A stretch of DNA of 64,000 bases from Parcubacteria group bacterium (GTDB lineage: Bacteria; Patescibacteriota; Minisyncoccia; Moranbacterales; UBA2206): assembly GCA_041674205.1 (NCBI GenBank), contig JBAYWF010000001.1, forward strand, positions 37,449 to 101,448, given 5' to 3'. Both the position numbers and the translations under genes were made by a program. Below are positions 8,954 to 62,197 of the stretch, piece after piece; position 1 is the first letter of the stretch; each line of letters starts with the position of its first letter. The notes under the pieces are model-generated. The model saw only the letters and a list, made by a program, of their open reading frames with translations, ran no database searches and was not told the origin of the DNA.

Positions 8954-10732
8954 ATGGAGAAAATACCCCGATTTATAAAAGAATTTTCTAAAAAAGAATC
9001 TTCAGAAGAAAGAAATGAAGCTGCTCGCGCGATAAAAGAAAAGCGAGCCAATCATTTTGATAAAAAAAATGCTCTGACTGACGAGTCTAAAAAAATAAAG
9101 GAAGTTGTAGGTATTAATGATCAAAAAATGAGTGAGCAACTTGAATTAATTCAGGGCTTAGAAAACACACTTGTCGAATTATCAAATTCTGGACTGAAAA
9201 AATTGATGAATTATTTTCATCTCAAGAAATTGCAGGCCGACATTGCTGTTGGAGAGAAAACATTTGAAGAACTAAAACAAAGACAGGAGGTGGTGAATTT
9301 GCAACTGCAAAAAACATACGTCGAAGTTGAATCGCAAAAAAGGGCACCGGAGCTAGAGGAGTCAAAGGTAATACTACAAAGCTTTTATAAAGGACAAAAT
9401 GAAAAATGGGCGGAAAGTGATTATTTAAAAGAGGATATAAAAAAATATTTCTCTGAAGAACATCTTGCCTCTCTCTCTATCGAGGACTATGCTTTGTTGT
9501 TGCGACGGTTTCCAGGTGAGATGGTGACACATGTGACTCGTCAGGGTATTCGAGATCATGTTGGACATATATATCACACTGCGGGCGATGGCGCTTATTC
9601 TAATGGTTTTATGAGAATGGTTGATGATGGAAGACTTCGTTCGCCACTGGGTCTATGCTTGACAGAAGTCGAGAAGGAACAATCTATTGCCAAATATTTG
9701 AATCTCGCTAAATATAAAGACAAAAACGAAGCACTTGATGTTTTAAATACAATAACGACTGAGAAACAAGGCGAGCCCGGAAGTTTTTCAGATAGAATGG
9801 CAATTCATTTTGCTACCGAAGAAGTAGCTGACTGTTATTATGGTTCTGAGAAGGGTAACGAAATCTTTATTATATTTCCTTCGGCACATGTGGCCTCTCA
9901 ATATTATTTTAGTGGACAAAGTGGAAGCTTGAATCGTTCGGGTGGAGGATATTGGAACGATCAGTGGGTTTGGGCAAATGAAGAGAGAGGGATGGATTTA
10001 AATGCTGGGCTAGTGTTTATACCCAAAGAAGTGCGGGTAAATAGAATAACTGGCTCGAGATACGAACTTGATGAAAATAAAACACCCAAACAAAATCGAT
10101 TATTCCATTCTATTATTGAAAAATTTACGTGCCTACCTGATTTTCATTTAATTGCGAGGCAAATAATGGAAATCACAGGAAAGTTTACTCAAGAATTAAA
10201 TATATCTGATATTTCGCCAAGTGATCAAGAATTATATAAAAAATTAAAACCGTTAATTGATTCACTTGAAAAATGCGGTATTCTAGATACCAGGATGCAA
10301 CTTTTATTACTCGACTATCGCAATATTTGTTCACTTGATATATACAAAGATGTGGAAGAGCGAGGCATAAGAGAGCCAATTCATACGATGGATGTCGTAA
10401 TAGGTAGTGTTCTTAAAAAGGGCGGCATTTTATTGTCGGAAGCGAAAGATACTTGTAGCTCTAAAGAATTCTGGGAGTCCTATTTTGCCAAAAATGTAGG
10501 GAAAAAACCAAATAAAATTGTGTACTATGAAGGTAGTAGTCCGACATATGCTTTCTTGAAATGGAGGAAGGAGCAAAATATAACTAAAAAAACTAAAGAC
10601 GAAAATATTGGTTTTCCAGATCATCATATTCAACGTGATCATGCGCAAGCTATTGCTGGGATGGATCGATTTAGGTTGCTTGCTGAGGAAGTGATTGAAA
10701 AATATTTTGCAAAAAAGAAGAGAAAAAAATAA
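8954..10732 (+). CDS. Large hypothetical protein, coiled-coil N-terminal half plus C-terminal globular domain (paralog B)
   Basis: 592 aa ORF in tandem with paralog A, K/E-rich coiled-coil N-terminus, lysine-rich tail, no recognisable domain. Confidence 0.6.
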   Translation: MEKIPRFIKEFSKKESSEERNEAARAIKEKRANHFDKKNALTDESKKIKEVVGINDQKMSEQLELIQGLENTLVELSNSGLKKLMNYFHLKKLQADIAVGEKTFEELKQRQEVVNLQLQKTYVEVESQKRAPELEESKVILQSFYKGQNEKWAESDYLKEDIKKYFSEEHLASLSIEDYALLLRRFPGEMVTHVTRQGIRDHVGHIYHTAGDGAYSNGFMRMVDDGRLRSPLGLCLTEVEKEQSIAKYLNLAKYKDKNEALDVLNTITTEKQGEPGSFSDRMAIHFATEEVADCYYGSEKGNEIFIIFPSAHVASQYYFSGQSGSLNRSGGGYWNDQWVWANEERGMDLNAGLVFIPKEVRVNRITGSRYELDENKTPKQNRLFHSIIEKFTCLPDFHLIARQIMEITGKFTQELNISDISPSDQELYKKLKPLIDSLEKCGILDTRMQLLLLDYRNICSLDIYKDVEERGIREPIHTMDVVIGSVLKKGGILLSEAKDTCSSKEFWESYFAKNVGKKPNKIVYYEGSSPTYAFLKWRKEQNITKKTKDENIGFPDHHIQRDHAQAIAGMDRFRLLAEEVIEKYFAKKKRKK

Positions 10733-10749
10733 AAAAATTATGCAAATCC

Positions 10750-10778
10750 AATAATTGACGGCTAAAAGGCCGTTTTTT
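10750..10778 (+). terminator. Terminator hairpin, copy 2 of the identical 29-nt repeat
   Basis: Identical to 6593-6621, also preceded by TGCAAA. Confidence 0.7.
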
Positions 10779-10935
10779 GCTATTGAAAATAATGCCTATG
10801 ATTAGCCAAATAATAGTAATATGAAACCTGTAATTAACTTAATTTACATAATTTAGGACTTTTTATTCGGATTGTGCTAGTATGCACTGTTGCGATGGAG
10901 ACGAAAGTTCTTTAAAAACACAACGAGGTGCTGGT

Positions 10936-11109
10936 ATGCCAAATAAATGCCGTTTTTCCGATCAGGAATGTGTGGGTGTTGCAAGCGAACGCGGCGAGAT
11001 GATTTGCAAGGATTGTAAAATATTGCGAGTGAAAGCGCGGAAGGTAGAAGTCTTTATTCGGCAATGGAAACCGAGTAATCTCGCAATCGCGGCGGCGAAA
11101 GAGAAATAA
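10936..11109 (+). CDS. Small Cys-containing hypothetical protein (possible zinc-ribbon)
   Basis: ATG at 10936 preceded by GAGGTG. MPNKCRFSDQECVGV...ICKDCKILRV has a Cys-x7-Cys...Cys-x2-Cys arrangement. Weak evidence. Confidence 0.3.
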   Translation: MPNKCRFSDQECVGVASERGEMICKDCKILRVKARKVEVFIRQWKPSNLAIAAAKEK

Positions 11110-11249
11110 ATCAAATACTGACCACCTCATGTCATAAAACGGAGTCGTAATATCACGGGGTAGCTCCGTGACGCCATTTCAGAGCGGACACCTGAAAACT
11201 TGCGTTGGAGGCCGATAAGACGCGAGATAATGTTTCGGCGAGGAGGAAG

Positions 11250-11580
11250 TATGAGAAAAATAGCCACTATTATTGGGTTAGCAGTGCTTACGGGCTGGCT
11301 GATGGTTATGGTGTCGAGTTATTTGATTAACATGTCGGCGGATGATATGCAAAAATGTGAGAATTTTGTAAGCGGTAGGAGGTGGGTAATTGTGTCCAAA
11401 GATTTTGTTGGACACAAGTATAGCACCTCGGTCGTATTCGTAATGAAGGAAGGGGCTGACAGTATCTCAGTTGAAACGAGTTCAGAAAAAGACTTCGTCT
11501 TCTTTCCAGGAGAATATGTCCAGCTTGAAATGAAGAAGGGTATGAAGGAATCATGCGTGTATGAAATAACGCATGAATAG
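11250..11580 (+). CDS. Small membrane-anchored hypothetical protein
   Basis: MRKIATIIGLAVLTGWLMVMVSS N-terminal TM/signal segment, strong RBS GAGGAGGAAGT upstream, terminator downstream. Confidence 0.45.
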
Positions 11581-11590
11581 TATTTAGCAA

Positions 11591-11624
11591 AGCGGGAAGC
11601 TCATTGCAGTTCCCGCTTTTTTTA
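11591..11624 (+). terminator. Rho-independent terminator
   Basis: AGCGGGAA-loop-TTCCCGCT followed by a T7 run. Confidence 0.7.
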
Positions 11625-11804
11625 TTTGTCGAAAAGGGATTTTTAGAGAGTAAGTAGTAATCGGTGAGTATTTCACCCTATGATATTGGCTTGCGGATAA
11701 AAAGTAGAGAGATAATAAAAATTATCAGATATGCAGTTATTGGCAGCTTCAAAGGATCTGATATTGTCAGTGAGGTTTAATATGTCAGCAAAGGAGCATT
11801 ACTT

Positions 11805-12143
11805 TTGTTCGAACGGAATTTTGGCTTGCTTAAACCTCGGTTTTTTACTATGCTAGATAGCATGAAATCCCTCAAAAACTATCTGGCTAAAAGGAACGTT
11901 TTCCAACCCAAGACGCTGGATGACCAGACGGTTTTTTATGTTTTCCGCAAGGTCATCAAGGAGGAATTCGGCAATGTGGGGATCGAGAAGCTGATCCCGG
12001 ATTATTACAATAACAAAACTATCTTTATTAAATCGGACAGCTCGGCTTGGTCCGCCGAGATGTGGTTGCAAAAGGATCGGATCGTCCGCAAGATGAACGT
12101 CGAATTGGGCGAAGGATCAATCGAGAAGATAAAAGTCAAATAA
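11805..12143 (+). CDS. DUF721 / DciA-like protein (replication-associated family)
   Basis: TTG start with AAGGAG RBS 8 nt upstream. C-terminal SDSSAWSAEMWLQKDRIVRKMNVELGEGSIEKIKV matches the DUF721 pattern (SSxWxxEL...LGxxxIxxIxF). The family is typically found near dnaA/dnaN. Confidence 0.55.
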   Translation: MFERNFGLLKPRFFTMLDSMKSLKNYLAKRNVFQPKTLDDQTVFYVFRKVIKEEFGNVGIEKLIPDYYNNKTIFIKSDSSAWSAEMWLQKDRIVRKMNVELGEGSIEKIKVK

Positions 12144-12175
12144 AAAAAGCCTTGGACAATCCAAGGCTTTTTTTG
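12143..12175. terminator. Bidirectional terminator between convergent genes
   Basis: GCCTTGGA-loop-TCCAAGGC flanked by an A-run upstream and a T-run downstream. Confidence 0.7.
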
Positions 12176-12181
12176 GGCATA

Positions 12182-14761
12182 TCAGGGAATTGAAACGATG
12201 TTGGTATGGATCGTGATGTTCGTACTTTTTGACTTGTCGTTTTTATCGACGGCGACAGCCTTGATTTCCAGGTCGGACGTCTTTTTGTCATCAGGTATGG
12301 AATAAGTGTAGCTTAAAGATGAGTCATCCTTGGAAGATACTTCGTCACCGTCGATATAGAGGGTTATCTTGTCTATATCGAAGGCGGAGGAAGCTGCGGC
12401 TTTGATCGTGACAGTGTTGGAAGTTACGGTTGCTCCGTTGGAGGGAGAGGTTATTTTTACTTTCGGAGTGATGTCGGAAAAATCATCAGATTCGCATTTT
12501 TTGGTAGGCGCGGGGTCATTGGAAAGGTCCTTGTCTTTCTCGGCATATTTTTGGACGGCCTTTTCCCAATTTTTAAATTGCGGATCGTCTTCCGGGTCTT
12601 TAGGGTAGTCTCCGCGCGGGTCATCCTTTTTGACATACCACAGGATGGAATGGGCAGAAAAGAATTTTTTCTTAGTTTTAAGACTGTCCGGGCAAGCGTC
12701 GGTGGCTAGGCAGTAATCATCGTTTTTATCAGGTATTTCGCAGACCTCGATTTTTTCTTCCGGGTCGAGTTTGCCGTTCAAGATCGGCTTGCCGGCATCT
12801 TCCGGTTCGTATTTCGGAAATTGCTCCACATTGTAGTTTTTTAAGGCGCCATCCATAAATTTCCGCCAAATCGGAGCGGCTACGAAAATTCCATCCGCAC
12901 CTTTGGCCATCGTGGAATTGTCGTTGTTGCCCGCCCAAACACCGACTACGAGAGACGGGGTATATCCCATCGCCCAACCGTCACGCCATTCATTGGTAGT
13001 TCCGGTTTTGGCGGCTACGGATCGGTCGGTGAAATTGAAGGGATTGTTGGTTCCAAAAACCGGAGCGCGCAATGAGTTGGTGGACATCACGTAATCAAGC
13101 ATAGACACATATTTTTCGTCGATGACTCTTTGGCCCGGGTCATTTTGGTATTCCTCGAGGATTTTTCCGGAGGAATCGGTTATTTTCAGGATGGCGGTCT
13201 TGTCATGGTGGATTCCTCCGGTTGCCAGGGAACCATAGGCATTCGTATGGTCAAGTAGTGTCACTTCGCCGCCGCCCAATACCAATGAGAGTCCATAATC
13301 GAAAGACTTGTCCAGAGTGGTTATGCCAAGAGCCTTGGCGGTCGTGATGGAATCCTGGACTCCGGCTAGATAGAGCGTTTGGACAGCGGGAACGTTCAGT
13401 GACATCGCCAGCGCATCTTTCATTTGGAGTAGCCCGTGGTTTTTCCCGTCATAGTTTTTCGGATTATAGCTTTTTCCCGAATCGGTTGAAAAATCGGTGT
13501 CTACGTCCCACATCTGGGTTTCTGGAGTGTAGCCTTTTTTGAAAGCTGTCAGATAGACATATGGCTTGAAAGATGATCCAGGCTGGCGGTTCCGGATAGT
13601 GACATTGACTTGGCCGTCGATGGATTTGTCGAAATAATCCTTGCTGCCTACCATCGCCAATATTTGTCCGGTACGCGGATCCATCGCGACCATCGCGGCA
13701 TTCTCAGCTCCGTATTTTGCCGTATTGGACGTCGCGCCTTCTTTGACCGCTTGTTCGGCTAATTGTTGTTTATCCCAATCGAGAGTGGTGTAAACCTTGA
13801 GGCCACCCTGTTCCAATGCTTGCTGGCCATAGGTTTTTTCCAGATATTCCTTGATGTACATCACGAAGTGCGGTGCGGAAATATTTTCCGAAGAGGGCCG
13901 TATTTTTGCCAGGATGTCGACCTCTTTGGCCGCCGCGGCTTGTTCCTGGGAAATATAGCCTAATTTTTCCATTTGGGTCAGCGCATACACCTGTCTGCCT
14001 CGCAAGGCGTCGGAGTTATTCCCATAAGGGGAATAGTAAGAGGGTGCTTGGGGCAGGGCAGCTAAAAGGGCCGCTTCGTCAAGGGAAAGTTCTGAGGCGT
14101 GTTTGCCGAAAAAAGTTTGCGCGGCCGCTTCGATGCCATAGGCGTTGGAGCCGTAGGGGATTTCATTGAGGTACATTGCTAATATTTCATCCTTGGAAAA
14201 TTTAAGCTCTATTTCGATAGCCAGAATCAGTTCCTTGATCTTGCGGGAAAGCGATCTTTCGTCGGTAAGGATGGAATTTTTAACGAATTGCTGGGTAATC
14301 GTCGAGCCGCCCCGTCCGCCTCCTCGGCGCAAGACGTTTGAAATTACGGCATTGGCCAAACCGCGCACATCAAATCCAGGATGGTGGTAGAAGTTCTGGT
14401 CTTCCAGGGAGATGGTGGCATATTTGATGGCGTCCGGCATATCCGTGAATTGGATTTGCGTTCTCTTTTCTTCGCCGTGGATGTCATAGAGCAGGTGGTC
14501 GCCGGTGCGGTCGTAAATCTTGGTTGATTCCGTCACGACCCGTTTGCTGATTCCGTTGGCACTGGGCAAGTCTTTGGCGAAATAGGCGAAAATGCCTAAA
14601 ACCAGAAGCGCGGAAAAGCCCGCCGCATAGGCGCTGATTTTGCCAGCCATCCGCCAGCGGTTTTTGCTGGAGGCATATTTGAAATTTCTTAGGGGGGAGA
14701 ATATCTTGTCCATAAAATATGATATTTTAAAATATGGCCAAATAAGGCCTTTTGCAACCAT
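12182..14761 (-). CDS. Bifunctional class A penicillin-binding protein (PBP1A; transglycosylase + transpeptidase) with C-terminal Ig-like extension
   Basis: GT51 motif EDQNFYHHPGFDVRG, transpeptidase SSFKP and KTGT motifs, N-terminal TM anchor. True start may be the internal ATG (MDKIFSPL, about 14713). Confidence 0.9.
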   Translation of the reverse strand: MVAKGLIWPYFKISYFMDKIFSPLRNFKYASSKNRWRMAGKISAYAAGFSALLVLGIFAYFAKDLPSANGISKRVVTESTKIYDRTGDHLLYDIHGEEKRTQIQFTDMPDAIKYATISLEDQNFYHHPGFDVRGLANAVISNVLRRGGGRGGSTITQQFVKNSILTDERSLSRKIKELILAIEIELKFSKDEILAMYLNEIPYGSNAYGIEAAAQTFFGKHASELSLDEAALLAALPQAPSYYSPYGNNSDALRGRQVYALTQMEKLGYISQEQAAAAKEVDILAKIRPSSENISAPHFVMYIKEYLEKTYGQQALEQGGLKVYTTLDWDKQQLAEQAVKEGATSNTAKYGAENAAMVAMDPRTGQILAMVGSKDYFDKSIDGQVNVTIRNRQPGSSFKPYVYLTAFKKGYTPETQMWDVDTDFSTDSGKSYNPKNYDGKNHGLLQMKDALAMSLNVPAVQTLYLAGVQDSITTAKALGITTLDKSFDYGLSLVLGGGEVTLLDHTNAYGSLATGGIHHDKTAILKITDSSGKILEEYQNDPGQRVIDEKYVSMLDYVMSTNSLRAPVFGTNNPFNFTDRSVAAKTGTTNEWRDGWAMGYTPSLVVGVWAGNNDNSTMAKGADGIFVAAPIWRKFMDGALKNYNVEQFPKYEPEDAGKPILNGKLDPEEKIEVCEIPDKNDDYCLATDACPDSLKTKKKFFSAHSILWYVKKDDPRGDYPKDPEDDPQFKNWEKAVQKYAEKDKDLSNDPAPTKKCESDDFSDITPKVKITSPSNGATVTSNTVTIKAAASSAFDIDKITLYIDGDEVSSKDDSSLSYTYSIPDDKKTSDLEIKAVAVDKNDKSKSTNITIHTNIVSIP

Positions 14762-23061: not shown

Positions 23062-25116
23062 CTAGAAAGGTTTATTTAAAAAATAATTTATTTTCACATT
23101 TAGATTTTCCAATAAAACAAGGAACCAATGTTTTTGGGCTGGAAAATTCTGCGCGGAAAAATAATTTTTAACGGATGGATGGTTTTCTTCGGAAAATGCT
23201 TGCGCGGTTTTGATGCCGAGGCCGAAATTCAAAAGTGAAAAGCGGGTTTCTTTCTTGCTTTGCCAGGTGGGCGAGGGTGTGGAGCGGCCGAGATCCTTTT
23301 CGCTGAGGACCGGAGCCGGTTTTGGTTGCGCGGGCGTATTTTCTTGCGGCAAGATTACGGCTGTGATTTCCGTCGCATCCGCCGGCTTTTCAGTGGCCGC
23401 GGTTTTTACAAACGGAAGATTCCATTTCCAGCCGGACTTGGTTTTCTCATAAGTTGCGCCTTCGGCGATGGATTTTTTCTTGTTGCCGTAGCTGACATGC
23501 GAGGCGACCTTGCCGTTGGGATAGCGCAATTCGATTTTGCCTTTGGTGTTGGGCAAAGTGAATTTGGAAACCGCGTAAGTGATCCTGGCGGTTTTGCCGG
23601 GCTTGATGAAAAAATCTTCCGTGATCGGATGGTTGGCTAATTTTTTGGTGCCACTCCCGACACTCCAATTTTTAAGGTTGATTTTTTTCTTGGTAGCGTT
23701 TTTGATTTCCAGATATTCCTTGCCGGTATCGGCGCCTGCCGGATTGGGCGAAAGGCCGGTTATTTTGACGGATAATTCGGGAAACTTTTCCACTTCGATT
23801 TTGAAAGTTTCCAATTTATCCTCGCTGCCGTCATCCACTTTCAAGGTTACGGTATATTCTCCGGTTTTCAGATATTTGTGGCGGGTTTTTTGCAGGTAGC
23901 TTTTATGTCCGTCGCCGAAATCCCAGGTGTATTTCAATTTATCCTTGTCTTTATCGGAACCTTTGGCGGAAAAATCAGCGTAAGTGCCGACGTAAATTTT
24001 TTCAGGCACATCATTTTTGACTTGAGGCAAGTTGTTAAAAACATTTTCCGCGCCAGGCGTCAGGAATTTGCTCCAGCGCCAATTTTTGCCAGCGAAGCTA
24101 TAGGATAATCCCTTTTTGGCACTGCCGTCATAACCGGCCGTAGATATCGGCTCAGCGTTTCCGGGGTTATAGAGACTCAGGAGTTCCCCCTGCGTATCAT
24201 TGAGAGCCAGGGTGCATTTTTCAGCCGTATTATTTTTGACAACCAAGAAGCTTTCCGGCCCGATGGTTTTTCCTGAAAGATCACAGACTTTGCCGGAGCG
24301 GTCCTGCAGGAACCATTTATCAAGTTTTTCCGATTCATCGCTCGGATTGTATAATTCAACGAATTCATTTTTGTCTTCGCTATTTTCCGTATCAGGCTTG
24401 GGCAGGAGCTCACTGATCCATATTTTATTCGAATAAACGGTGGGAGGTGGCGGAGGCGGTTCTTTTGAATTTTGCGCTCCTGGCGTGGCGCAATCAGGCG
24501 CATCGGCATCTAAATTCATTGGTGAAAAACAGCTATGCCAATTTTCCTTGGCGGTTCCGTCCCCGGGAGCGTCATTCCGTTCCATTGATTTTTTGGTCGT
24601 CCCATTTTCACCGGCCAATGGCGTTCCGGTTCCATCGTCTGCCACATCGATCAAGCCGCCCGTATCCAGGGGCATATCATAAAGTTTATATCGGGCTGAG
24701 GAATTGGAAAGGGAGATGTCGGTATTCGCGATATCCGGATCGGTATCCAGGATCGATTTTCCGCCAGTGAAGGAATGGTCTTTAGAATTGTTGGAAATTA
24801 AAAAGTAACCGTTTTTTGCTAGGATGCCTTTATCTATGACAATCATCAAAGAATCGTTTTTATACAAGGACCAAGGAGTAAGGTTGAAATCGATAGAATC
24901 GGAAGTTAAGTTTTTCAGCTCTATCCATTCATCGGCAGTGGAAGCGGAGGAACCCATCCACATCAGTTCATTTATGATCACTTTGGGTTTTTCCGCATAA
25001 ATATTTTTTGAAAAAACAAAAAGCCCTGCCAATAAACAGGGTAAAAATGCGCAAAAATAAAATTTGTGCTTGTTTTTCACCCGGATTTTTAATTTCCTGT
25101 TTTTGTTAAAAACCAA
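23062..25116 (-). CDS. Secreted multi-domain surface protein with lamin-tail domains (LTD) and a PKD domain
   Basis: Signal/TM, then LTD signatures (VIINELMWMG...DEWIELKN; WISELLPKPD...EFVELYN; LEIKNAT) and PKD motif YTWDFGDGHKSYLQ...GEYTVTLKVDDG. Confidence 0.75.
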   Translation of the reverse strand: MVFNKNRKLKIRVKNKHKFYFCAFLPCLLAGLFVFSKNIYAEKPKVIINELMWMGSSASTADEWIELKNLTSDSIDFNLTPWSLYKNDSLMIVIDKGILAKNGYFLISNNSKDHSFTGGKSILDTDPDIANTDISLSNSSARYKLYDMPLDTGGLIDVADDGTGTPLAGENGTTKKSMERNDAPGDGTAKENWHSCFSPMNLDADAPDCATPGAQNSKEPPPPPPTVYSNKIWISELLPKPDTENSEDKNEFVELYNPSDESEKLDKWFLQDRSGKVCDLSGKTIGPESFLVVKNNTAEKCTLALNDTQGELLSLYNPGNAEPISTAGYDGSAKKGLSYSFAGKNWRWSKFLTPGAENVFNNLPQVKNDVPEKIYVGTYADFSAKGSDKDKDKLKYTWDFGDGHKSYLQKTRHKYLKTGEYTVTLKVDDGSEDKLETFKIEVEKFPELSVKITGLSPNPAGADTGKEYLEIKNATKKKINLKNWSVGSGTKKLANHPITEDFFIKPGKTARITYAVSKFTLPNTKGKIELRYPNGKVASHVSYGNKKKSIAEGATYEKTKSGWKWNLPFVKTAATEKPADATEITAVILPQENTPAQPKPAPVLSEKDLGRSTPSPTWQSKKETRFSLLNFGLGIKTAQAFSEENHPSVKNYFSAQNFPAQKHWFLVLLENLNVKINYFLNKPF

Positions 25117-25128
25117 TAAAAAAAGGGA

Positions 25129-25740
25129 CTATTGGGAGTCCCTTTTTTCAAGCGCGGATTTGATTGCGGCAGCCTCCGCTTCGGCCTTCTCTCCCTCAGC
25201 CCGTTTCTCGCCGGATTTTTCCAAATTCATAATGATATTTTTCAAAGCATATGGGTCGGCTACTTTTTCAAAAAGGAATTTTTCCTGTTCAGCCGCGGTC
25301 TGGATCTGGACGTCGCCGTAATTGAGGAATGTCGGGATGATGCCCAGGACCTCGGCCGAAACATCCTGGATTTTGTCTAATTCGACTTCGCTGACTTCGC
25401 GCGAAAAAAGTCCGCGCTGGGTGATATTGACAATCCTTTTGCTGGTGATGATCCAGACGTCGAAATAATAATCGATCCAAACCAGGAAAAACAGGACCCA
25501 GATGAGCATCGCGAAAAGGCTTTCAGAAAAAACAAGCAGGAGCTGGTAATCCGAGTCCGCCAAGATGGGGAATAAGGCTGGTAAAACGGCATAACTGCCG
25601 AACAGCAGCAGGAGCATCGTGAAAATCAAAAATAAATTTTGCAGGATGTTGAACCAATGTCGGTGGATGACGGTAATTATTTCCTCGTCCTCGCGCTTAT
25701 CGGCAAAATGGTAGGGGTTTGAATTGAGCATGGGTTTCAA
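25129..25740 (-). CDS. Membrane protein with bacterial PH (bPH_2 / YdbT-like) domain
   Basis: Two TM helices followed by a PH-like segment (DVWIITSKRIV...) and an acidic/Ala-rich tail. Confidence 0.6.
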   Translation of the reverse strand: MKPMLNSNPYHFADKREDEEIITVIHRHWFNILQNLFLIFTMLLLLFGSYAVLPALFPILADSDYQLLLVFSESLFAMLIWVLFFLVWIDYYFDVWIITSKRIVNITQRGLFSREVSEVELDKIQDVSAEVLGIIPTFLNYGDVQIQTAAEQEKFLFEKVADPYALKNIIMNLEKSGEKRAEGEKAEAEAAAIKSALEKRDSQ

Positions 25741-25973: not shown

Positions 25974-27020
25974 TCAGATTAGTTTGTTATTATTCGAATA
26001 TTTTATGCCTAGGTGGTTGTAAGCGTGTTCGGTCACCATCCGGCCGCGCGGAGTCCTGGTCATAAAGCCGATTTGCAAGAGATATGGTTCATAGACATCC
26101 TCGATGGTTTTGATTTCTTCGCTGGTCGCCGCGGCAATCGTGCTGAGTCCGACCGGTCCGCCGTTGAATTTTTCGATGATGGTGCGCAGGATGTGGCGAT
26201 CGGCCGGTTCCAATCCGATCGGGTCGACATCGATCATTTCCAGGGCTTCCTCGGCGATGGCGCTATCTACGAATGGATGGTTTTTGATTTGTGAGAAGTC
26301 GCGCACGCGTTTCAGAAGGCGGTTGGCGACGCGGGGGGTTTGGCGGGCGCAACTGGCGATTTTGGCCAGTCCGGTGTCGTGGATATCCACGCCTAAAATC
26401 CGGCTGGATCTTTTGATGATATCCTTCACTTCTTCGTTCCCATAGAATTCCAGCCGGTAGGTGGCGCCGAAACGGTTGCGCAAGGGATTGGTGAGCGATC
26501 CGAGTTTGGTCGTTGCGCCGATAAGGGTGAATTTAGGCAGATCCAGTTGGATGGTACGGGCCGAGGGGCCTTTGCCGATGATGATGTCCAATTTGAAATC
26601 TTCCATCGCCGGATAGAGGATTTCTTCGATGGATTTGTTGAGGCGATGGATCTCATCGATAAACAGGATGTCTCCGTCTTGCAGATTGGTCAGGATCGAA
26701 CCGAAGTCGCCGACGCGTTCGATAGCCGGACCGGACGTGGTTTTGATATTGACGCCCATTTCTTTAGCGATTATATTGGCCAGGGTCGTTTTGCCGAGTC
26801 CTGCGGGTCCGTAGAGAAGGATATGTTCGATAGGTTCTTGGCGTTTTTTGGCGGCGCGAAGCAGGAAGTCCAGATTTTTTTTGACTTTCTCCTGGCCGAT
26901 ATATTCGGAAAAGCTCTGGGGACGCAAGGTATTGTCCAAATTATTATCTTCGGAGGTCGCCTTGGGCTGGGTAGCGGAGGCCGCCAGATCGGTGAATTGT
27001 TCGGAAGAATCGACTAACAT
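25974..27020 (-). CDS. ruvB: Holliday junction branch-migration helicase RuvB
   Basis: [22 protein letters not shown]alker A, FIDEIHRL Walker B, RuvB C-terminal winged helix. Confidence 0.95.
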
Positions 27021-27404: not shown

Positions 27405-28526
27405 TTATTTTTTGTGGCGAGAGCATAACAATGCCCTGATCTCATAATCGAGAGCGAGGACGCTGCTTCTCAGGAACGAAGCGCACTCGTCGATCTCCGT
27501 GATTTCCGCGATCTCAAACTGGAAATCATCATGCGATGCGGCTATGTCACAAGAATGCAACAAGCTGTATTTTTTGATTATCATCCGGTATAGTTCGCTG
27601 GAAATGTTCGATCTTAGGCGGTTTATCCGTTCCGCTTCATGCAGGCGGATGGCGGATTCCTGGTCCGCCGTTCCGCGTGTTATCAGTAAGGCCTGCAAAT
27701 TATTTGCGGGACAGGCCGATTCCCAAAGTTTTTCTTTGAGGATGATTTTCCTTTGGGTGACTAGGTCTCCGGAGATATTTTCCACCATCCCCATCAACGT
27801 ATCTCCCAGGGTTTTTTTTGAAAAAACTTTGTTTTTTTCGTTTAGGAACGGAGTGATGATATCCCAGAAAACGCATTCCCCGGCCGTAACGGACGGAGTG
27901 AAATGGAATTTCCCCAATGATCGTTCCGCTTTTTCCAATAGGCGCTGGCCATATTCCCCAAGCCGATCGTTTATTTCCGGATTATGGAAATCCAAATTGG
28001 GAAAAGGAACTTTTGAGACTTCGGAAATGACCAGGTCCCTTAAACCGAGATGCAATGGTCGGCAGGCCGATCCGCCAATCGCGCAAGGCATCATCTCATC
28101 GACGCTGCCAATACTTCTTTTAACCAGTACATCGAATTCGTCTCCGCCTGCCCGATCGATTTCCATAGTCAGCGAATGCTTTTTGCAAAAAGCATAGACC
28201 GCTTGATTATGGAGAACTCCGGCGACCAGATCGAGCAAAGCATCTCCCAGCCTATGGTTGCCGATATCATTGACCGTTTTCAGACCATCCAGATCGAAAC
28301 GGATCTTGGCGACCTGTTTCAGTCGCGTTTTGATTTCGGCTATCGGGTAGCCGTTGAAAAGAGTTTGGATAAAAATGTTGCGAATCTCGTTTTTTATCCA
28401 AGCTCCGCCCTCGTGGAAGCCATGTTTGGCTGCCAAATTCTCGTAATTTTGAGGGGGGTGAATCTTCCCATCGTCATTTAGCGCTACGTTACTTATCAAT
28501 TCTTGTAATTCGCTTTCCGCAGACAT
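27405..28526 (-). CDS. GGDEF-domain protein (putative diguanylate cyclase) with unknown C-terminal domain
   Basis: RFDLDGLKTVNDIGNHRLGDALL and intact active-site RAGGDEFDVLV. Two hairpin terminators downstream (27363-27395 and 27320-27345). Confidence 0.75.
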   Translation of the reverse strand: MSAESELQELISNVALNDDGKIHPPQNYENLAAKHGFHEGGAWIKNEIRNIFIQTLFNGYPIAEIKTRLKQVAKIRFDLDGLKTVNDIGNHRLGDALLDLVAGVLHNQAVYAFCKKHSLTMEIDRAGGDEFDVLVKRSIGSVDEMMPCAIGGSACRPLHLGLRDLVISEVSKVPFPNLDFHNPEINDRLGEYGQRLLEKAERSLGKFHFTPSVTAGECVFWDIITPFLNEKNKVFSKKTLGDTLMGMVENISGDLVTQRKIILKEKLWESACPANNLQALLITRGTADQESAIRLHEAERINRLRSNISSELYRMIIKKYSLLHSCDIAASHDDFQFEIAEITEIDECASFLRSSVLALDYEIRALLCSRHKK

Positions 28527-28653: not shown

Positions 28654-31600
28654 TTATAAATCAGTCACCCGTTCGATTTCTTCGAGGGTGGTTTCGCCCT
28701 CCAGGACTTTCAATACGCCGTCTTGGGCCATAGTGAGCATTCCGTTTTCAATGGCCTTGTCGGCGAGTTCGGAAGTGATGGCGCCCTGCGTGATGAGAGC
28801 CTGGATGTCCTTATCGATGACGAACACCTCGCTGACCGTAGTGCGGCCCTTATAGCCGAGATAGTTGCATTTCTCGCAGCCTTTAGGTTTGCATATTTTT
28901 TCAATCGGCGGAATTTCCACTCCTGATTTCGGCGAAATCGTTTTGATGACCATGGTGATTTTTTCTTTCTCTTCGAATGTCGGCACGTTTTTTTCTTTGC
29001 AGCTACATAGTTTGCGCACCAGGCGTTGCGCCATAAAGGCATTCACGCCGGATGCGATGTCAGAAGGCGAGACGTCCATATTGAGCATCCTTTGGACCGC
29101 TCCAGCCGCGTTGTTGGTATGGATGGTCGAAAGCACCAGGTGTCCGGTAAGCGCGGCCTGCACGGCGACCTCGGCGGTTTCATTGTCACGGATTTCGCCT
29201 ATCATCATAATGTCCGGATTCTGGCGCAAGAGTGAGCGCAGGGCGGTCGGGAAAGTGTAGCCTTCCTTGTCGTTCACGGGAGTTTGCAACAGGCCTTCGA
29301 TTTGGTATTCGATTGGATCTTCCACGGTGATGATTTTCACTTCGGGTTTATTGAGGATATTCAAGAGACTGTAGAGAGTGGTGGTTTTTCCGGAGCCGGT
29401 CGGTCCGGTATTGAGGAAAACCCCATTCGGTTTGGAAATTTCATGCAGGATTTTTTTCTTATTCTGTTCGCGGATGCCGAGCTTGTTGATATCCAATTCT
29501 TGCGAGGCTTTGCTCAGGAGCCGCATTACCACGGTTTCTCCGTAGCCGCCAAGGATGATGGAGATGCGTACGTCAAGCGATTTTTCCTTGATGTCGGCGA
29601 TCTCGTCGGCGAAACGGATTGTAAAACGGCTGTCGACGACGCCTTCGCGTACTTGGGATTTGACGCCGCTCAGGATCTTTATTTCACCGAGGATCGCCGG
29701 ATATTCGTTGAGCGGCAAAGCCACGACGGTTTGTAGGATGCCGTCGATGCGGAACCGGAATTTGACATCGCTTTGTCCCGGCTCGATATGGATGTCGCCG
29801 ACACCGAGCAATGAGGCGGCCGCGAAGATGATTTTGTTGATGTCGGTGACTTTGGCGAGATAGATGGCGGCTTGGAGTTTTTTGAAATCACTGATGTTTT
29901 CTTGGGCTTTGGCGAAGGAGTCTTCATCGACTAGGATATTGCGGCCGAGCGATTGTGACATCAGTTTTTCATAGACACCTTCCAAGAAATCACCTTCGCC
30001 CGTGACACGCTTCACTTCATCGATGGAGGTTATGCCGCTTAACGCTTTTAAAATCCCGTCTTGCAACATCGTGATCATCCCGGCTTCCAGCGCGGCCACG
30101 GTCAATTCGGTTTCTCCGGCTAAATTGAGAATCAGACCCTCCAAATCTTCATTGAGGGTGAGTACTTCAAAGATGCCGATGCGACCCTTATAACCGAGGT
30201 TGTTGCACTTAGGGCAGCCTTTCGGCCGGTAGAGCTTGGTGATTTCTTTGGGCACTTCGACTTTGGCCTTAGGGGATATGATGGATAATATTTTTTTAAT
30301 GGAAGCGAGGGATTCGTTGGCCGGCACATATTCCTCCTTGCAATCGCACAATTTGCGCACCAATCTTTGGCCGATGATCGCGTTGACGGCGGGAACAATG
30401 AGCGAGGGTTTTACGCCCATCTCGATGAGGCGGGGGATGGTTCCGATAGCATTGTTGGTATGGATGGTGGAAAGGACTAAATGCCCGGTCAGCGCCGAGT
30501 TGACGGCGATGTCGGCCGTTTCCTCATCGCGGATTTCTCCTACTAGGATGACATCCGGATCTTGCCTGACGATGGCGCGCAAGCCGTTGGCGAAAGTATA
30601 GCCGCGGGATCTTTCGATTTGGGTCTGGGAAATGCCGGCGACTTCATATTCGATCGGATCTTCGATAGTGATGATTTTCGTTTCCGGATCATTGAGCTTG
30701 TTGATGAAGGAATAGAGGGTGGTGGTTTTGCCGGAACCGGTCGGCCCGGTCGTAAGGATCATCCCATTAGGCGCGGAAATCTGTTTTTGTAATTCCTCAT
30801 ATGCCAGGCCTTGCAATCCCAGGCTTTCCACATCGGTTTGGATGGATGAAGGATCAAGAAGGCGCATAACCACGCTTTCTCCGAAACTGCCTGGAATGAT
30901 GGAAACGCGGATGGCGATTTTTTTAGCCTCGATGTTGACTTCGAAAGTCCCATCCTGGGCGATGTCGCGCAGGTTTATTTTCATACCGGACATCATCTTT
31001 ATCCTGGAAATGATGGTCTTGAAGATGTTCAGGGGCAAAAAAGCTACGTCATGCAGGACGCCGTCGATCCGATAGCGCAGGCGGAACTCTTTTTCCTGCG
31101 GTTCGATGTGGATATCGCTCGCGCCAAGTTTGTAGGCGCCGCCCATGACGATGTTCAAGACCTGGGTGGTCGGCAGTTCATTGATCCGTTGCTTCAGGGT
31201 GATAAGGTCTTTCAGATATTCATCGAATTTTTCCAGATCGTCCCCGGTAAGGTTGACGCTCAGTTGGGAGAGGATATCGGTGAAGACGATTTTCTTATAT
31301 TTCTCCAAGACCTTGCCCATATTGTATTGGGAAATCACGAAAATCTGGGTATCCCAACCTCTGGTTTCGGAAAGATTTTTCAAATACCCGATAGTTTTCA
31401 ATTGTATCGGATCGGGCGAAACTATCGTAGCTTTCTTGCCGACTTTCTGGATGATGGCGACATTATAGAGTCTCGCGTCTTCCTCGGATAGCAACTTTAG
31501 GCTTTCGGTGCTAATCGGTACGAGGTTGGTGTCAAGATAGGGAAGTCCGAGCGCTGCTGCGAAAGCCGCCGCTTGCTCTTCCTCGGATTGATGGCGCAAG

Positions 31601-31689
31601 TTGGACAGGACTTTGGCGGTGTCGGTTTCTTTTTGGGAAGCCCCGACGGTTCCCAGGGAAGATGAATGGTCTCTTAATATTTTTATCAT
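28654..31689 (-). CDS. Tandem-duplicated, fused type II/IV secretion-system ATPase (two complete GspE/PilB modules in one 1011-aa protein)
   Basis: N-terminal T2SE_Nter-like domain, then two full modules each with Walker A GPTGSGKTTTLYS, Asp box, Walker B VGEIRD, His box GHLVLSTIHTN and a tetra-Cys motif (CxC...CxKC). The two halves are also similar at DNA level (about 29100-29240 vs 30440-30580). Confidence 0.85.
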   Translation of the reverse strand: MIKILRDHSSSLGTVGASQKETDTAKVLSNLRHQSEEEQAAAFAAALGLPYLDTNLVPISTESLKLLSEEDARLYNVAIIQKVGKKATIVSPDPIQLKTIGYLKNLSETRGWDTQIFVISQYNMGKVLEKYKKIVFTDILSQLSVNLTGDDLEKFDEYLKDLITLKQRINELPTTQVLNIVMGGAYKLGASDIHIEPQEKEFRLRYRIDGVLHDVAFLPLNIFKTIISRIKMMSGMKINLRDIAQDGTFEVNIEAKKIAIRVSIIPGSFGESVVMRLLDPSSIQTDVESLGLQGLAYEELQKQISAPNGMILTTGPTGSGKTTTLYSFINKLNDPETKIITIEDPIEYEVAGISQTQIERSRGYTFANGLRAIVRQDPDVILVGEIRDEETADIAVNSALTGHLVLSTIHTNNAIGTIPRLIEMGVKPSLIVPAVNAIIGQRLVRKLCDCKEEYVPANESLASIKKILSIISPKAKVEVPKEITKLYRPKGCPKCNNLGYKGRIGIFEVLTLNEDLEGLILNLAGETELTVAALEAGMITMLQDGILKALSGITSIDEVKRVTGEGDFLEGVYEKLMSQSLGRNILVDEDSFAKAQENISDFKKLQAAIYLAKVTDINKIIFAAASLLGVGDIHIEPGQSDVKFRFRIDGILQTVVALPLNEYPAILGEIKILSGVKSQVREGVVDSRFTIRFADEIADIKEKSLDVRISIILGGYGETVVMRLLSKASQELDINKLGIREQNKKKILHEISKPNGVFLNTGPTGSGKTTTLYSLLNILNKPEVKIITVEDPIEYQIEGLLQTPVNDKEGYTFPTALRSLLRQNPDIMMIGEIRDNETAEVAVQAALTGHLVLSTIHTNNAAGAVQRMLNMDVSPSDIASGVNAFMAQRLVRKLCSCKEKNVPTFEEKEKITMVIKTISPKSGVEIPPIEKICKPKGCEKCNYLGYKGRTTVSEVFVIDKDIQALITQGAITSELADKAIENGMLTMAQDGVLKVLEGETTLEEIERVTDL

Positions 31690-31852: not shown

Positions 31853-32983
31853 TCAATGGCTGATTTCTTTCATTTTCTTGGCGATGGATTCTCCGGCTTC
31901 CGCCAAGTTCGGCGTCGCCAGCCGTATTTCAAGCGTATCGCGCTTGAGTGTGCCGTTGAAAAAAGGATTTATTTTTTTGAGCAAATTTTGGTCGGGTGAT
32001 TTCAATTTTGCCACGGTCGAAGCGGTCGTGTCGTTGTAGAGGGCCATAAAAATCTTGCCGTCGCTGTAATTTTCCTGCAGTTTTTCCAAAATCAGCGAAA
32101 CATCGGTCGGATTGGAGCGGCTTTGCACGAAATCTTCCACGCTGAGGATCGTCCAGACCAGCTTGGTCTGTTCGTCCAGGTTAAGGTTGGACATCGCGCG
32201 TCCCCAGAGCTTCAGGATATGGAGCGGCTGGGTTTTGTATAGCCAGCGAATGATGGTTTGCTGATCGGCTTGTTTATCCATCAGGGCGGCGGCGGTCAGG
32301 AGAGCCCGGGGCGTGGTATTTTTCTTCTGGAAGCTTTCGGTGGCGCTGATGATACCGGTCAGGAGACAGTTGGCGATATTTTTGTCGATGAGATCCGCTC
32401 CCATATCATTGAGGGCGGCGCCCAAGATCTCGCTGCAGGAGGAGGCGGTGATGTCGACCAGGTTGATTTGGCCGAAATTGTCATTGTCGCTCCGGTGGTC
32501 AATGTTGACGATTGGCACTTCGAAAAACAGATCGGGATTGTTCTCATAGATTTTGCCGAGCCTTTCCAGGTCCGGGCTGTCGATGATCACGATCAGATCA
32601 TATTTGAATTTGGCCAGGATGAAAGAAAAATCTTTCGGATTAAGGGCGCCTTTTTCCGGAGTGAGATAGACATTGAATTTATCATCGGTTTTTTCGGTGC
32701 GGACATTTTGGATTTTGTTGTAAGTCGTATTGAAAGAAAGCACGAAATCCCGGGCGCCGGAAATTTCCGTCAGGATTTTTTCCGGTTTGGGTAGGAAGTC
32801 ATATTTGGCGGAAAGATGGTTGGAAAAAGCGATTGAAGCCTGGACATTTTTTTTCTGCAGGAAAAAATAGAGCGCCCAGGCGCTGCCGACCGCGTCCCCG
32901 CTGGGATTTTCTGGAATCAAAATCAGGACATCTTGCGCTTTGTCCAAAAATTGCTTGAATTGTTCTTGTGGGGTGAGACTCAT
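31853..32983 (-). CDS. DHH-family phosphoesterase (NrnA-like oligoribonuclease / pAp phosphatase)
   Basis: DHH motif (IVNIDHRSDN), DHHA1-like C-terminal region (GGGH-type). Confidence 0.75.
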   Translation of the reverse strand: MSLTPQEQFKQFLDKAQDVLILIPENPSGDAVGSAWALYFFLQKKNVQASIAFSNHLSAKYDFLPKPEKILTEISGARDFVLSFNTTYNKIQNVRTEKTDDKFNVYLTPEKGALNPKDFSFILAKFKYDLIVIIDSPDLERLGKIYENNPDLFFEVPIVNIDHRSDNDNFGQINLVDITASSCSEILGAALNDMGADLIDKNIANCLLTGIISATESFQKKNTTPRALLTAAALMDKQADQQTIIRWLYKTQPLHILKLWGRAMSNLNLDEQTKLVWTILSVEDFVQSRSNPTDVSLILEKLQENYSDGKIFMALYNDTTASTVAKLKSPDQNLLKKINPFFNGTLKRDTLEIRLATPNLAEAGESIAKKMKEISH

Positions 32984-37342: not shown

Positions 37343-37452
37343 CGGCCAGGAACCGCGATGGGTTGCTGGCTTTTGGATTGTTTCGTCAGCTTTTTTAATG
37401 TGGGCTTTCTCCACTTTAAAGTTGGTGATGTAATCAAATTCCGACTCGAAGC

Positions 37453-51216: not shown

Positions 51217-52347
51217 ATGTTGATACAAAGAATAATCCAAAAAAAAGTAGAAAAAGCTTTATTTAAGGGTAAAATAATCATAATTTATGGACCTCGCCAG
51301 GTAGGCAAGACGACTTTGGTCAAACAAGTCAGGGAGAAATATTCAGGAAAGTCTGCTTATTTCAATTGTGACGAACCGGATATCCGTGAAGCGTTAACCA
51401 GCAAAACCTCGACCGAGCTGGATAATTTCCTGGGCTTAGCCCAGAAAAAATTGATTATTTTGGATGAGGCTCAAAGAGTGAAAAATATCGGGGTGACACT
51501 GAAATTGATCGTGGATAATTTCCCCGATACGCAAGTCATAGCCACCGGTTCATCATCTTTTGATTTGGCCAATGAAATTTCCGAGCCGCTCACTGGAAGA
51601 AAGAATGAGTTTTTTCTTTATCCCTTTTCATTGGAAGAGCTTAAGCAAATTTATTCCGAGATTGAGAGCGATAGGCTTTTGGAAAATCGGATGGTTTTTG
51701 GAATGTATCCGGAAATAATTTTAAAAAAAGATGACTTGGAGAAGAGTTTGAAAAGCTTGGCGCAAAGTTATTTGTATAAAGACGTTTTGCAATACCAGAA
51801 TATAAAAAATCCGGAAATTTTGGAAAAACTGTTGCAGGCCCTGGCTTTGCAAGTCGGATCGGAAGTTTCTTACAATGAATTGGCTGGAATGACAGGGGTG
51901 GATAAGAATACGGTTTCCAATTACATCCAGCTCCTAGAAAAAGCCTTTGTCATTTTCCGCTTGAATCCATATAGCCGGAACTTGCGCAAAGAAATAAAAA
52001 AAATGCGTAAGATTTATTTTTATGATAACGGAGTCCGCAATGCGCTGATCAATAATCTGAATCCATTGAATTTGCGACAGGACAAAGGTGCTCTTTGGGA
52101 AAATTTTATGCTTAGCGAAAGAGTGAAATATAACAATAACCATGCGCTGGATAAAAATTTATATTTTTGGAGAACGCAACAAAAACAAGAGATAGATTTT
52201 TTGGAAGAAAGTGGCGGTAAAATCGCAGCTTTTGAATTCAAGTGGCAAAAGGACAAGTTTAATATCCCGAAAGCCTTTGCGGATGCGTATCCGGAAGCCG
52301 AAGCGGAATTGGTCAATAGGAAAAATTATAGGAAATTCGTAATGTAG
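51217..52347 (+). CDS. AAA-family ATPase (AAA_14 + DUF4143-type architecture)
   Basis: Walker A IYGPRQVGKTTLV, Walker B LIILDEAQ, C-terminal DUF4143-like region. Confidence 0.75.
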   Translation: MLIQRIIQKKVEKALFKGKIIIIYGPRQVGKTTLVKQVREKYSGKSAYFNCDEPDIREALTSKTSTELDNFLGLAQKKLIILDEAQRVKNIGVTLKLIVDNFPDTQVIATGSSSFDLANEISEPLTGRKNEFFLYPFSLEELKQIYSEIESDRLLENRMVFGMYPEIILKKDDLEKSLKSLAQSYLYKDVLQYQNIKNPEILEKLLQALALQVGSEVSYNELAGMTGVDKNTVSNYIQLLEKAFVIFRLNPYSRNLRKEIKKMRKIYFYDNGVRNALINNLNPLNLRQDKGALWENFMLSERVKYNNNHALDKNLYFWRTQQKQEIDFLEESGGKIAAFEFKWQKDKFNIPKAFADAYPEAEAELVNRKNYRKFVM

Positions 52348-61903: not shown

Positions 61904-61975
61904 TCCGCGATAGCTCAATGGTAGAGCAGTTGACTGTTAATCAATTGGTTCCAGGTTCGAATCCTGGTCGCGGAG
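61904..61975 (+). tRNA. tRNA-Asn (anticodon GTT)
   Basis: Acceptor TCCGCGA/TCGCGGA, D-arm GCTC-AATGGTA-GAGC, anticodon loop CTGTTAA, T-arm CCAGG-TTCGAAT-CCTGG, discriminator G. Confidence 0.85.
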
Positions 61976-61986
61976 CTTTGACATAA

Positions 61987-62157: not shown

Positions 62158-62197
62158 AAAAAAACTCCTCGCTGTTTTTTTGCGAGGAGCTATTTTA
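62158..62197. terminator. Bidirectional terminator at the 3-prime end of the recombinase gene
   Basis: ACTCCTCGC-TGTTTTTTT-GCGAGGAG with A/T runs on both sides. Confidence 0.6.

Follow-up and report, generated by a model that had tools for sequence, protein, structure and literature searches.

A conserved two-module PilB/GspE-family ATPase of Candidatus Moraniibacteriota and the ring that it may form

The stretch of DNA analysed here, hereafter the window (64,000 nucleotides [nt]; positions 37,449 to 101,448 of contig JBAYWF010000001.1, assembly GCA_041674205.1, from a Parcubacteria group bacterium), carries on its reverse strand, at positions 28654 to 31689, a gene whose product of 1011 amino acids (aa) joins two motor modules of the PilB/GspE family in one chain and is referred to below as the double ATPase. 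The Pfam family T2SSE (PF00437) matches the protein in two stretches (E=2.9e-228), and BLASTP of the protein against itself aligns aa 154 to 563 with aa 594 to 1009 at 48% identity over 417 columns (E=2e-141), which bears out the two complete GspE/PilB modules that an initial annotation, made from the letters alone, had read in one continuous open reading frame (ORF). The motifs named in that annotation all occur in both modules at the spelling given there. In particular, GPTGSGKTTTLYS is found twice, at aa 315 and aa 762, and the Walker A sequence GPTGSGKT at both places fits the superfamily pattern GxxxxGK[ST]; each module has one Asp box (ITIEDPIEY and ITVEDPIEY), one Walker B (VGEIRD and IGEIRD) and one His box (GHLVLSTIHTN, at aa 402 and aa 849), and the tetra-Cys motif, CxC...CxxC, comprises cysteines 448/450/492/495 in module 1 and 895/897/938/941 in module 2. 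The N-terminal domain expected ahead of the modules, which in the PilB/GspE clade anchors to GspL/PilM, was recognised in one copy only, from a weak match to MshEN/T2SSE_N at aa 47 to 109 (19.1 bits against a gathering score of 23.1) and from the alignment to the N1 domain (N1D) of solved PilB structures (5zfr and 6olj), which begins at aa 36 to 44. The architecture is N1-[N2a-CTDa]-[N2b-CTDb], i.e., two full motor modules, each consisting of an N2 domain (N2D) and a C-terminal domain (CTD), behind a single N1. The features of the gene are the following (AF2, AlphaFold2; pLDDT, its per-residue confidence score; c-di-GMP, cyclic di-GMP).

28654 to 31689, reverse strand: gene of the double-module PilB/GspE-family ATPase, 1011 aa, stop codon at 28654 to 28656 (ORF with ATG start; Pfam T2SSE twice)
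31309 to 31689, reverse strand: N1 domain, aa 1 to 127, one copy, T2SSE_N/MshEN-type fold without the MshEN c-di-GMP core motif (weak Pfam MshEN match; alignment to the 5zfr/6olj N1D; AF2 pLDDT 82 to 90)
31174 to 31308, reverse strand: N1-N2 connector, aa 128 to 172, helix-strand-helix-helix, a pattern repeated in the inter-module linker (AF2 secondary structure)
30835 to 31173, reverse strand: N2D of module 1, aa 173 to 285 (alignment to Geobacter PilB)
30907 to 30909 and 30862 to 30864, reverse strand: arginine fingers R261 and R276 of module 1 (Geobacter PilB alignment, residue roles from PMC5424180)
30946 to 30948, reverse strand: T248 in the N2D of module 1, in place of the PilB QDGR arginine (Geobacter PilB alignment)
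30001 to 30834, reverse strand: CTD of module 1, aa 286 to 563 (motifs; Foldseek match to the PilB core, target-normalised TM score up to 0.94)
30724 to 30747, 30646 to 30672, 30526 to 30552, 30454 to 30489 and 30205 to 30348, reverse strand: Walker A, Asp box, Walker B, His box and tetra-Cys motif of the module 1 CTD
29854 to 30000, reverse strand: inter-module linker, aa 564 to 612, with the conserved helix GDFLEGVYEKLMSQSLGR and Y573 conserved at 95% (AF2 helices 567 to 580, 589 to 598 and 602 to 611; conservation)
29494 to 29853, reverse strand: N2D of module 2, aa 613 to 732 (alignment, motifs)
29566 to 29568 and 29521 to 29523, reverse strand: arginine fingers R708 and R723 of module 2 (alignment)
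29626 to 29628, reverse strand: R688 in the N2D of module 2, the QDGR-equivalent arginine, which is kept (alignment)
28657 to 29493, reverse strand: CTD of module 2, aa 733 to 1011 (motifs)
29383 to 29406, 29305 to 29331, 29185 to 29211, 29113 to 29148 and 28867 to 29007, reverse strand: Walker A, Asp box, Walker B, His box and tetra-Cys motif of the module 2 CTD

The similarity of the two halves at the nucleotide level, which the initial annotation had called recognisable, holds for a core of 333 nt (70.6% identity, E=2e-40) but not over all aligned codons, where identity is 57%; third codon positions are 40% identical, near saturation, and exact matches reach 17 nt at most. With values of this kind, the duplication must be old and unable to mislead an assembler. 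In the one-genome-per-species contigs of GTDB, 454 stretches encode relatives, the best 80 of which (57 to 97% identity) were examined as loci. Nearly all of these 80 are full length, the remainder being truncated at the end of a contig; the label is Moraniibacteriota for most, a single-cell genome is among them, and the closest relative, 97% identical, lies on JAUXSK010000018.1, from a metagenome-assembled genome of Ca. Moraniibacteriota. At 74 of the 80 species-level loci, the frame stays open over 980 aa or more and includes two Walker A motifs, and at the other six, five of which are truncated by the end of the contig, the two Walker A motifs share one frame; thus, no stop or frameshift was found between the modules at any of the 80. 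The possibility, foreseen in the initial annotation, that adjacent PilB genes were joined by an error of sequencing or assembly, or that a repeat was collapsed, has no observation in its favour and is ruled out by these loci, which come from independent metagenomes and a single-cell genome, and we give it practically no credence; a collapsed tandem repeat is ruled out by the low nucleotide identity and short exact matches as well.

Furthermore, among 5.8 billion proteins searched, more than 120 clusters at 90% identity were retrieved, 1004 to 1024 aa in length, covering the whole query at 68 to 97% identity and annotated as GspE/PulE family protein of Candidatus Moranbacteria or Parcubacteria. 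Another search, for which a more distant double (P0125, 44% identical) served as query, added about 100 clusters from the "Patescibacteria group," for a total of more than 200 90%-identity clusters of 1004 to 1024 aa. When 1.84 billion representatives at 50% identity were scanned exhaustively with HMMER, about 15 of double length were listed, the most distant at 38% identity, with single-module proteins of about 550 aa ranking after them. The covalent tandem is therefore old, conserved in at least 80 species and not an assembly artefact. As regards the labels of the records, many GTDB entries carrying the gene at 57 to 78% identity (L023, L026, L028, L031 and others) are titled "uncultured Bdellovibrionales bacterium," and two others bear the titles "Candidatus Bathyarchaeia archaeon" (L082) and "Candidatus Peregrinibacteria" (L027) despite a Moraniibacteriota-type gene; these titles probably reflect mislabelled or contaminated bins.

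The roles of individual residues were taken from the Geobacter PilB structures, in which the Asp-box glutamates, an atypical Walker B with the catalytic Glu, the His box and two N2D arginine fingers are described as family-wide (PMC5424180). In an alignment of 103 double-module homologues at 38 to 97% identity (A1), the Walker A lysines (K321 and K768), the Asp-box glutamates (E343/E347 and E790/E794), the Walker B glutamates (E385 and E832), the His-box histidines (H403/H410 and H850/H857), the arginine fingers (R261/R276 and R708/R723) and all eight cysteines (C448, C450, C492, C495, C895, C897, C938 and C941) are invariant. The inter-chain arginine (R455 of Geobacter PilB) falls within QRLVRKLC in both modules, with R445 invariant and R892 at least 90% conserved. 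Accordingly, neither half has lost a motif across these homologues, and a degenerate or regulatory module can be ruled out for the main double family; judged by their residues, both ATP sites are apparently catalytically competent.

With regard to the symmetry of the modules, 84 of the 428 alignable positions are at least 85% conserved in both, and the residue is the same at all 84, so that no type-II site occurs among the jointly conserved positions and a strong functional divergence is ruled out. Only N239, Q245, P266, S472 and P473 are conserved in module 1 alone, and only Y573, G675, G715 and Y716 in module 2 alone. The Moraniibacteriota subclade presents Thr248 in module 1 at the position of the PilB "QDGR" arginine (R257 of the Geobacter protein), which is occupied by Arg or His in module 2 and in more distant doubles. 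Mean residue conservation is 0.81 in module 1 and 0.75 in module 2, which evolves slightly faster, whereas the two N2Ds are close to each other (0.60 for N2a and 0.58 for N2b). The asymmetric specialisation of the halves that the initial annotation had envisaged thus found no confirmation and, on these comparisons, would be marginal at best.

As for the placement in the superfamily, each module aligns with solved PilB/GspE cores at 45 to 46% identity, with a target-normalised TM score of up to 0.94 and a root mean square deviation (rmsd) of 1.9 to 2.4 Å; the Foldseek search against the PDB gave a target-normalised TM score of 0.94 and an rmsd of 1.9 Å for 5tsg_B, and since none of the PDB chains covers more than about 37% of the query, no double-module structure is present in the PDB. 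The tetra-Cys zinc-binding motif is specific to the PilB/GspE extension clade (PMC5424180), and together with the N1D it places the protein in this clade and not with PilT. At the level of the NCBIfam equivalogs, N1 with module 1 reaches 488.7 bits and module 2 reaches 405.6 bits with the PilB model TIGR02538 (cut-off 675.65), a value that the whole protein exceeds (882) through summing. The modules taken singly score 487.8 and 421.5 bits with the GspE model TIGR02533 (cut-off 630.25), the top match of module 2, and 252.6 and 221 bits with ComGA, as well as 181.7 and 162.5 bits with the PilT model TIGR01420 (cut-off 319.1); single modules thus remain under all four cut-offs. By its motifs, the double ATPase belongs to the PilB/GspE clade, while being an equivalog of no characterised subfamily.

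In the neighbour-joining tree of the modules, those in first position in the main family form one clade and those in second position another, which indicates that a single old duplication preceded the diversification of the family. Of the single-module relatives, the closest (P0135 and P0427) occupy the same slot between a gene for a DHH-like protein and that for RuvB, and more distant singles, including a Niyogibacteria protein, also show the conserved gene order (P0494 without RuvB downstream); sharing the slot, the singles are orthologues by position, and it was at this site that the module duplicated. Since the linker at aa 564 to 612 repeats the pattern of the connector at aa 128 to 172, the duplicated unit corresponds to connector, N2D and CTD, which in an ancestor of the lineage would have been duplicated in tandem and in frame within a single-module gene of this slot. 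Apparent stand-alone genes resembling module 2 were rejected as such, P0124, P0136 and P0149 being fragments of doubles and P0156 and P0187, on visual inspection, ordinary single-module PilB-like proteins.

The process has been repeated more than once. A protein of 1460 aa (P0024, positions 10001 to 14383 of locus L003, on one 77-kb JGI contig) consists of N1 and three N2D-CTD modules, with three Pfam T2SSE matches; its third module is sister to the second, at 59% identity, which identifies it as a duplicate of module 2. In three further proteins (P0130, P0131 and P0137), the two modules are closest to each other, at 74%, 58% and 44% identity, respectively, and thus arose by independent duplications, at least three besides that of the main family. 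The last of these (P0137, 1047 aa), found in two independent assemblies of a non-CPR organism (CPR, candidate phyla radiation; L091, 8001 to 11144, and L092, 3275 to 6418), is a soluble fusion with two T2SSF and two T2SSE matches, in which two cytoplasmic domains of PilC/GspF type stand at the place of N1. The Walker A lysine of its module 1 is lost by a K-to-T replacement (GPTGSGTTT), and its gene begins right at the stop codon of a zf-HC2 anti-sigma-like gene, which itself follows an extracytoplasmic function (ECF) sigma factor. The fused proteins seen have either two or three modules, both divisors of six.

The genes that surround the double ATPase in the window are the following (LTD, lamin-tail domain).

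31853 to 32983, reverse strand: DHH-fold protein, 376 aa, conserved upstream neighbour (Pfam DHH; weak NrnA match; also beside single-module orthologues)
27405 to 28526, reverse strand: divergent GGDEF-like protein, 373 aa, between the ATPase and RuvB (Pfam GGDEF, E=0.0068)
25974 to 27020, reverse strand: RuvB, conserved downstream neighbour (synteny in L001 and L004 to L010; species loci)
25129 to 25740, reverse strand: bPH_2 protein (conserved near the LTD/PKD gene in L001, L003, L005 and L006)
23062 to 25116, reverse strand: LTD and PKD protein, 684 aa (conserved downstream of RuvB in L001, L003, L005 and L006)

The full gene order reads TsaE (on the opposite strand), DHH-like gene, ATPase, RuvB, bPH_2, LTD/PKD protein, YebC and RuvC and is kept, in part per locus, around doubles at 72% and at about 40 to 44% identity (L001, L004, L005 and L006). 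At the locus of the triple protein, the TsaE/DHH slot is kept, with RuvB and the genes that follow it upstream of the ATPase and not downstream. Among the species loci that were informative, 62 of 68 have the DHH-like gene upstream in the same orientation, and 62 of 69 have RuvB downstream, also in the same orientation. The DHH-like protein of the window features SGD instead of DxD and DHR instead of DHH, and throughout its family (the window, L001, L003 to L005, L007 to L009 and 62 of the 68 loci among L011 to L090) motif I, DxD, is mostly SGD and motif III reads D[HNY][HRK], with the near-invariant motifs TPEKG..P.DFSF..AKFKYD, FGQINL, SFQKKNTTP, KTQPL..LKLWGR.M and EDFVQSRS. It may be a pseudo-enzyme with a functional tie to the orphan ATPase. 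The LTD/PKD and bPH_2 proteins are possible cell-surface components, and a weak "T4SS_pilin" family protein was observed near their region in L006 and L008. Genes of replication and repair (PolA, Fpg, HolA, RuvA, RuvB and RuvC) abound in the wider neighbourhood.

The GGDEF-like protein, with the core FDLDGLKTVND...RAGGDEFDV, matches the NCBIfam GGDEF/diguanylate cyclase models at 1e-5 to 1e-6, under all curated cut-offs. Its gene is present at only 4 of the 80 loci (the closest relatives and two others), is absent from L001 and is an accessory insertion outside the conserved unit. The MshEN core motif for c-di-GMP, RLGxx(L/V/I)(L/V/I)xxG..., whose definition reportedly goes back to Wang et al. 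in 2016, gave no match in aa 1 to 150 of the double ATPase, while the control proteins P0242 and P0159 matched. With the motif absent and the neighbour this rare, a link of the motor to c-di-GMP is unlikely, and regulation through this pair was discarded.

The initial annotation had also stated that pilin genes do not appear in the window, and this stands, as neither a class-III signal-peptide motif in the six frames of the 64 kb nor the T2SSF, PilM, PilN, PilO or PilT families among the ORFs scanned with Pfam could be found, nor a third T2SSE homologue in the window. No prepilin peptidase gene was seen in the window either. The search of the flanks for PilC, PilM/N/O, pilin and prepilin peptidase genes was likewise negative within 10 kb of the ATPase in nine related loci (L001 and L003 to L010).

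On these grounds, we consider it fairly probable that the double ATPase is a PilB-type type IV filament extension motor of Candidatus Moraniibacteriota (Parcubacteria/CPR) that works as a single-tier, pseudo-hexameric ring of three chains; in judging the readings, architecture and function were treated as partly independent questions. The packing unit of PilB, in which the N2D of a chain joins the CTD of the adjacent one, is rigid, ATP lies between packing units, and the ring shows closed-ATP, closed-ADP and open interfaces with C2 symmetry (PMC5424180). By analogy, three chains of the double ATPase would form an in-plane (ab)3 ring equivalent to PilB6, the trimer of dimers that the initial annotation had proposed, in which each chain would contribute one intramolecular and one intermolecular N2D:CTD packing unit and which would carry three N1 anchoring domains only. 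The PulF platform is a trimer with six cytoplasmic (Cyto) domains, and in the PulE6:PulF3 model each of these binds one N2D (PMC10790770); it follows that a three-chain motor would stand 3:3 with its platform, the six N2Ds contacting the six cytoplasmic domains of a trimeric PilC-type protein. During a C2 (closed-closed-open) cycle, opposite sites would always be one "a" and one "b," hence both module types would run the full cycle, which would account for the lack of degeneration or specialisation in either. Two chains of the triple protein, as an (abc)2 ring, would have exact C2 symmetry. The filament system driven by the motor would be encoded elsewhere in the genome. The restriction to two and three modules and the recurrence of the duplication in P0130, P0131 and P0137 argue for an in-plane ring, and the pairing of two Cyto domains with two modules in P0137 is a hint, of the Rosetta-stone type, of the 2:2 pairing in the PulE6:PulF3 model.

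Several observations weigh against this reading, in part because they would suit a different arrangement of the same chains, namely, a stacked motor in which six chains (a dodecamer of modules) place a ring of first modules, with N1 and facing the membrane platform, above a ring of second modules adding power or regulation, as in the tiers of KaiC CI/CII, p97 D1/D2 and EccC. The AF2 monomer built with A1 (mean pLDDT 86.1, predicted TM score 0.51) is confident for the domains and leaves the placement of the modules relative to each other undefined, so no in-plane packing emerges from it. Mean-field direct coupling analysis (DCA) of 308 doubles (effective number of sequences, 142, hence underpowered) found 3 pairs common to both modules among the top 100 intra-module pairs, against 0.27 expected, and no signal in the N2D-CTD blocks, with a positive control that barely passed. 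Natural tandem P-loop ring ATPases such as KaiC, EccC and p97 stack their modules, and precedents of this kind are mostly tiered. A second tier would also be compatible with the separate clade and slightly faster evolution of the second modules, and it could be reached by a C-terminal linker, given that the C terminus of GspE tolerates the fusion of an Hcp1 ring in the 4ksr construct, where the latter reportedly lies under the CTD face. However, N2b, which in a lower tier would no longer touch the platform, is conserved to the same degree as N2a; a fresh duplicate such as P0130 would need a ring-ring interface at once; and the stacked arrangement sits poorly both with the platform-type domains of P0137, paired one to each module, and with module numbers confined to two and three. 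We therefore hold stacking to be rather unlikely.

The function assigned to the three-chain ring meets other difficulties. The shortfall of the single modules against the PilB and GspE cut-offs counts against it, and so does the absence of pil genes at the loci examined, which makes the assignment to type IV pili one of homology alone; moreover, CPR type IV pilus ATPases co-localise with PilC/M/N/O in numerous genomes, unlike this one (Mehéust et al., PMC6744442). It is thus conceivable that the DHH-like protein and the ATPase form a pair that powers DNA uptake of the ComGA type, or else secretion or attachment of a kind specific to the CPR; the choice between in-plane and stacked rings would arise for such a motor as well. 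The order TsaE/DHH/ATPase/RuvB/bPH_2/YebC/RuvC is kept from 97% down to about 40% identity and around single-module orthologues too, ComGA is among the NCBIfam matches, and in L010 a 366-aa gene in the DHH slot, with no Pfam match on record, ends at the ATPase start codon. Nevertheless, gene order in reduced CPR genomes can persist without functional linkage, a terminator-like hairpin separates the two genes in the window (though such sites are not more numerous than expected from shuffled sequence), the best matches of both modules are PilB and GspE and not ComGA, and the N1D and tetra-Cys motif are typical of PilB/GspE. Altogether, a role outside pili seems unlikely to us, even if the DNA-recombination neighbourhood hints that the process driven could be DNA uptake instead of adhesion or twitching. 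A broader scheme can be put forward only tentatively, in which Parcubacteria would maintain, apart from the pil clusters, a conserved two-gene unit of a DHH-fold pseudo-phosphoesterase and an orphan PilB-clade motor, whose ring would have been rebuilt repeatedly from 6x1 to 3x2 to 2x3 modules.

Elsewhere in the window, ORFs resembling DnaA (1590 to 2966) and DnaN (3242 to 4396) by their N-terminal sequences place a replication origin probably near the window start. They are followed by a Glu/Leu/Phe/Val dehydrogenase (4407 to 5642) and by two large ORFs (7237 to 8877 and 8954 to 10732) with no Pfam match at E<=0.1, and the first 12 kb or so has a G+C content of 36 to 42%, compared to 41 to 50% for most of the remainder. 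An ATPase with AAA_14 and DUF4143 (51217 to 52347, forward strand) stands among housekeeping genes; this architecture is often met in mobile or defence contexts. At the other end, a tRNA-Asn gene (61904 to 61976, forward strand) and a large serine recombinase (62190 to 63854, reverse strand; Resolvase, Recombinase and Zn_ribbon_recom) likely mark the edge of an element integrated at tRNA-Asn, and GC content, GC skew and AT skew all shift in the last 2 kb.

The sequences discussed here are public under generic annotation, and we found no description of tandem PilB/GspE motor modules in a recent PilB review or in the full-text literature searched, which leaves out most subscription journals; it seems, then, that a known motor family has an old, conserved and recurrent covalent architecture for which no earlier description was found. 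It is still debated in what way PilB and GspE hexamers couple ATP hydrolysis to filament assembly, among other things whether the symmetry is C2 or C3/C6, which of the sites fire at the same time and by what contacts six subunits engage the platform. With two or three non-identical, apparently active modules in fixed order, mutations can be directed at one class of site and spare the others; covalently linked ClpX is a comparable reagent for AAA+ unfoldases. If the single-tier rings prove true, these proteins would be natural "covalently linked" motors with which the C2 rotary model and the 6:3 stoichiometry of motor to platform could be tested. The number of N1 anchoring domains per ring is halved, and a ring of three chains would pair one-to-one with trimeric PilC. 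For the CPR, whose way of life presumably depends on type IV pili, the double ATPase is a widespread, conserved and unstudied orphan motor, with its 80 or more species and more than 200 clusters.

Compared to known systems, the double ATPase shares with PilB of Geobacter metallireducens (5TSG, 5TSH and 6OLJ) the N2D and CTD fold, the catalytic motifs, the tetra-Cys motif and a preceding putative N1D, but it differs in having two motor modules for one N1D, no pil cluster and Thr248 in module 1. Canonical PilB and GspE are homohexamers of single-module subunits of about 550 to 600 aa, whereas the chain described here has 1011 aa and two modules. With GspE/PulE it has clade and motifs in common, without Gsp genes nearby, and CPR bacteria have been reported to lack the secretin (PilQ) and a Gram-negative-type envelope (PMC6744442). 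In Thermus thermophilus PilF (6F8L and 5IT5), a PilB-family motor is also enlarged by internal duplication. PilF multiplies N-terminal domains of GSPII/N1 type and has one motor module, whereas the double ATPase duplicates the motor and keeps a single N1. Two or three P-loop modules per chain are also found in the rings of KaiC, EccC and p97/NSF, which belong to other ATPase families and form stacked tiers. PilC/GspF is internally duplicated (Cyto1-TM/Cyto2-TM) by the same logic as a putative (ab)3 motor, but it is a membrane protein of unrelated fold, a partner and not a homologue. Finally, the P0137-type fusion represents an independent duplication of the same motor module, with PilC-type Cyto domains instead of N1 and in a non-CPR host.

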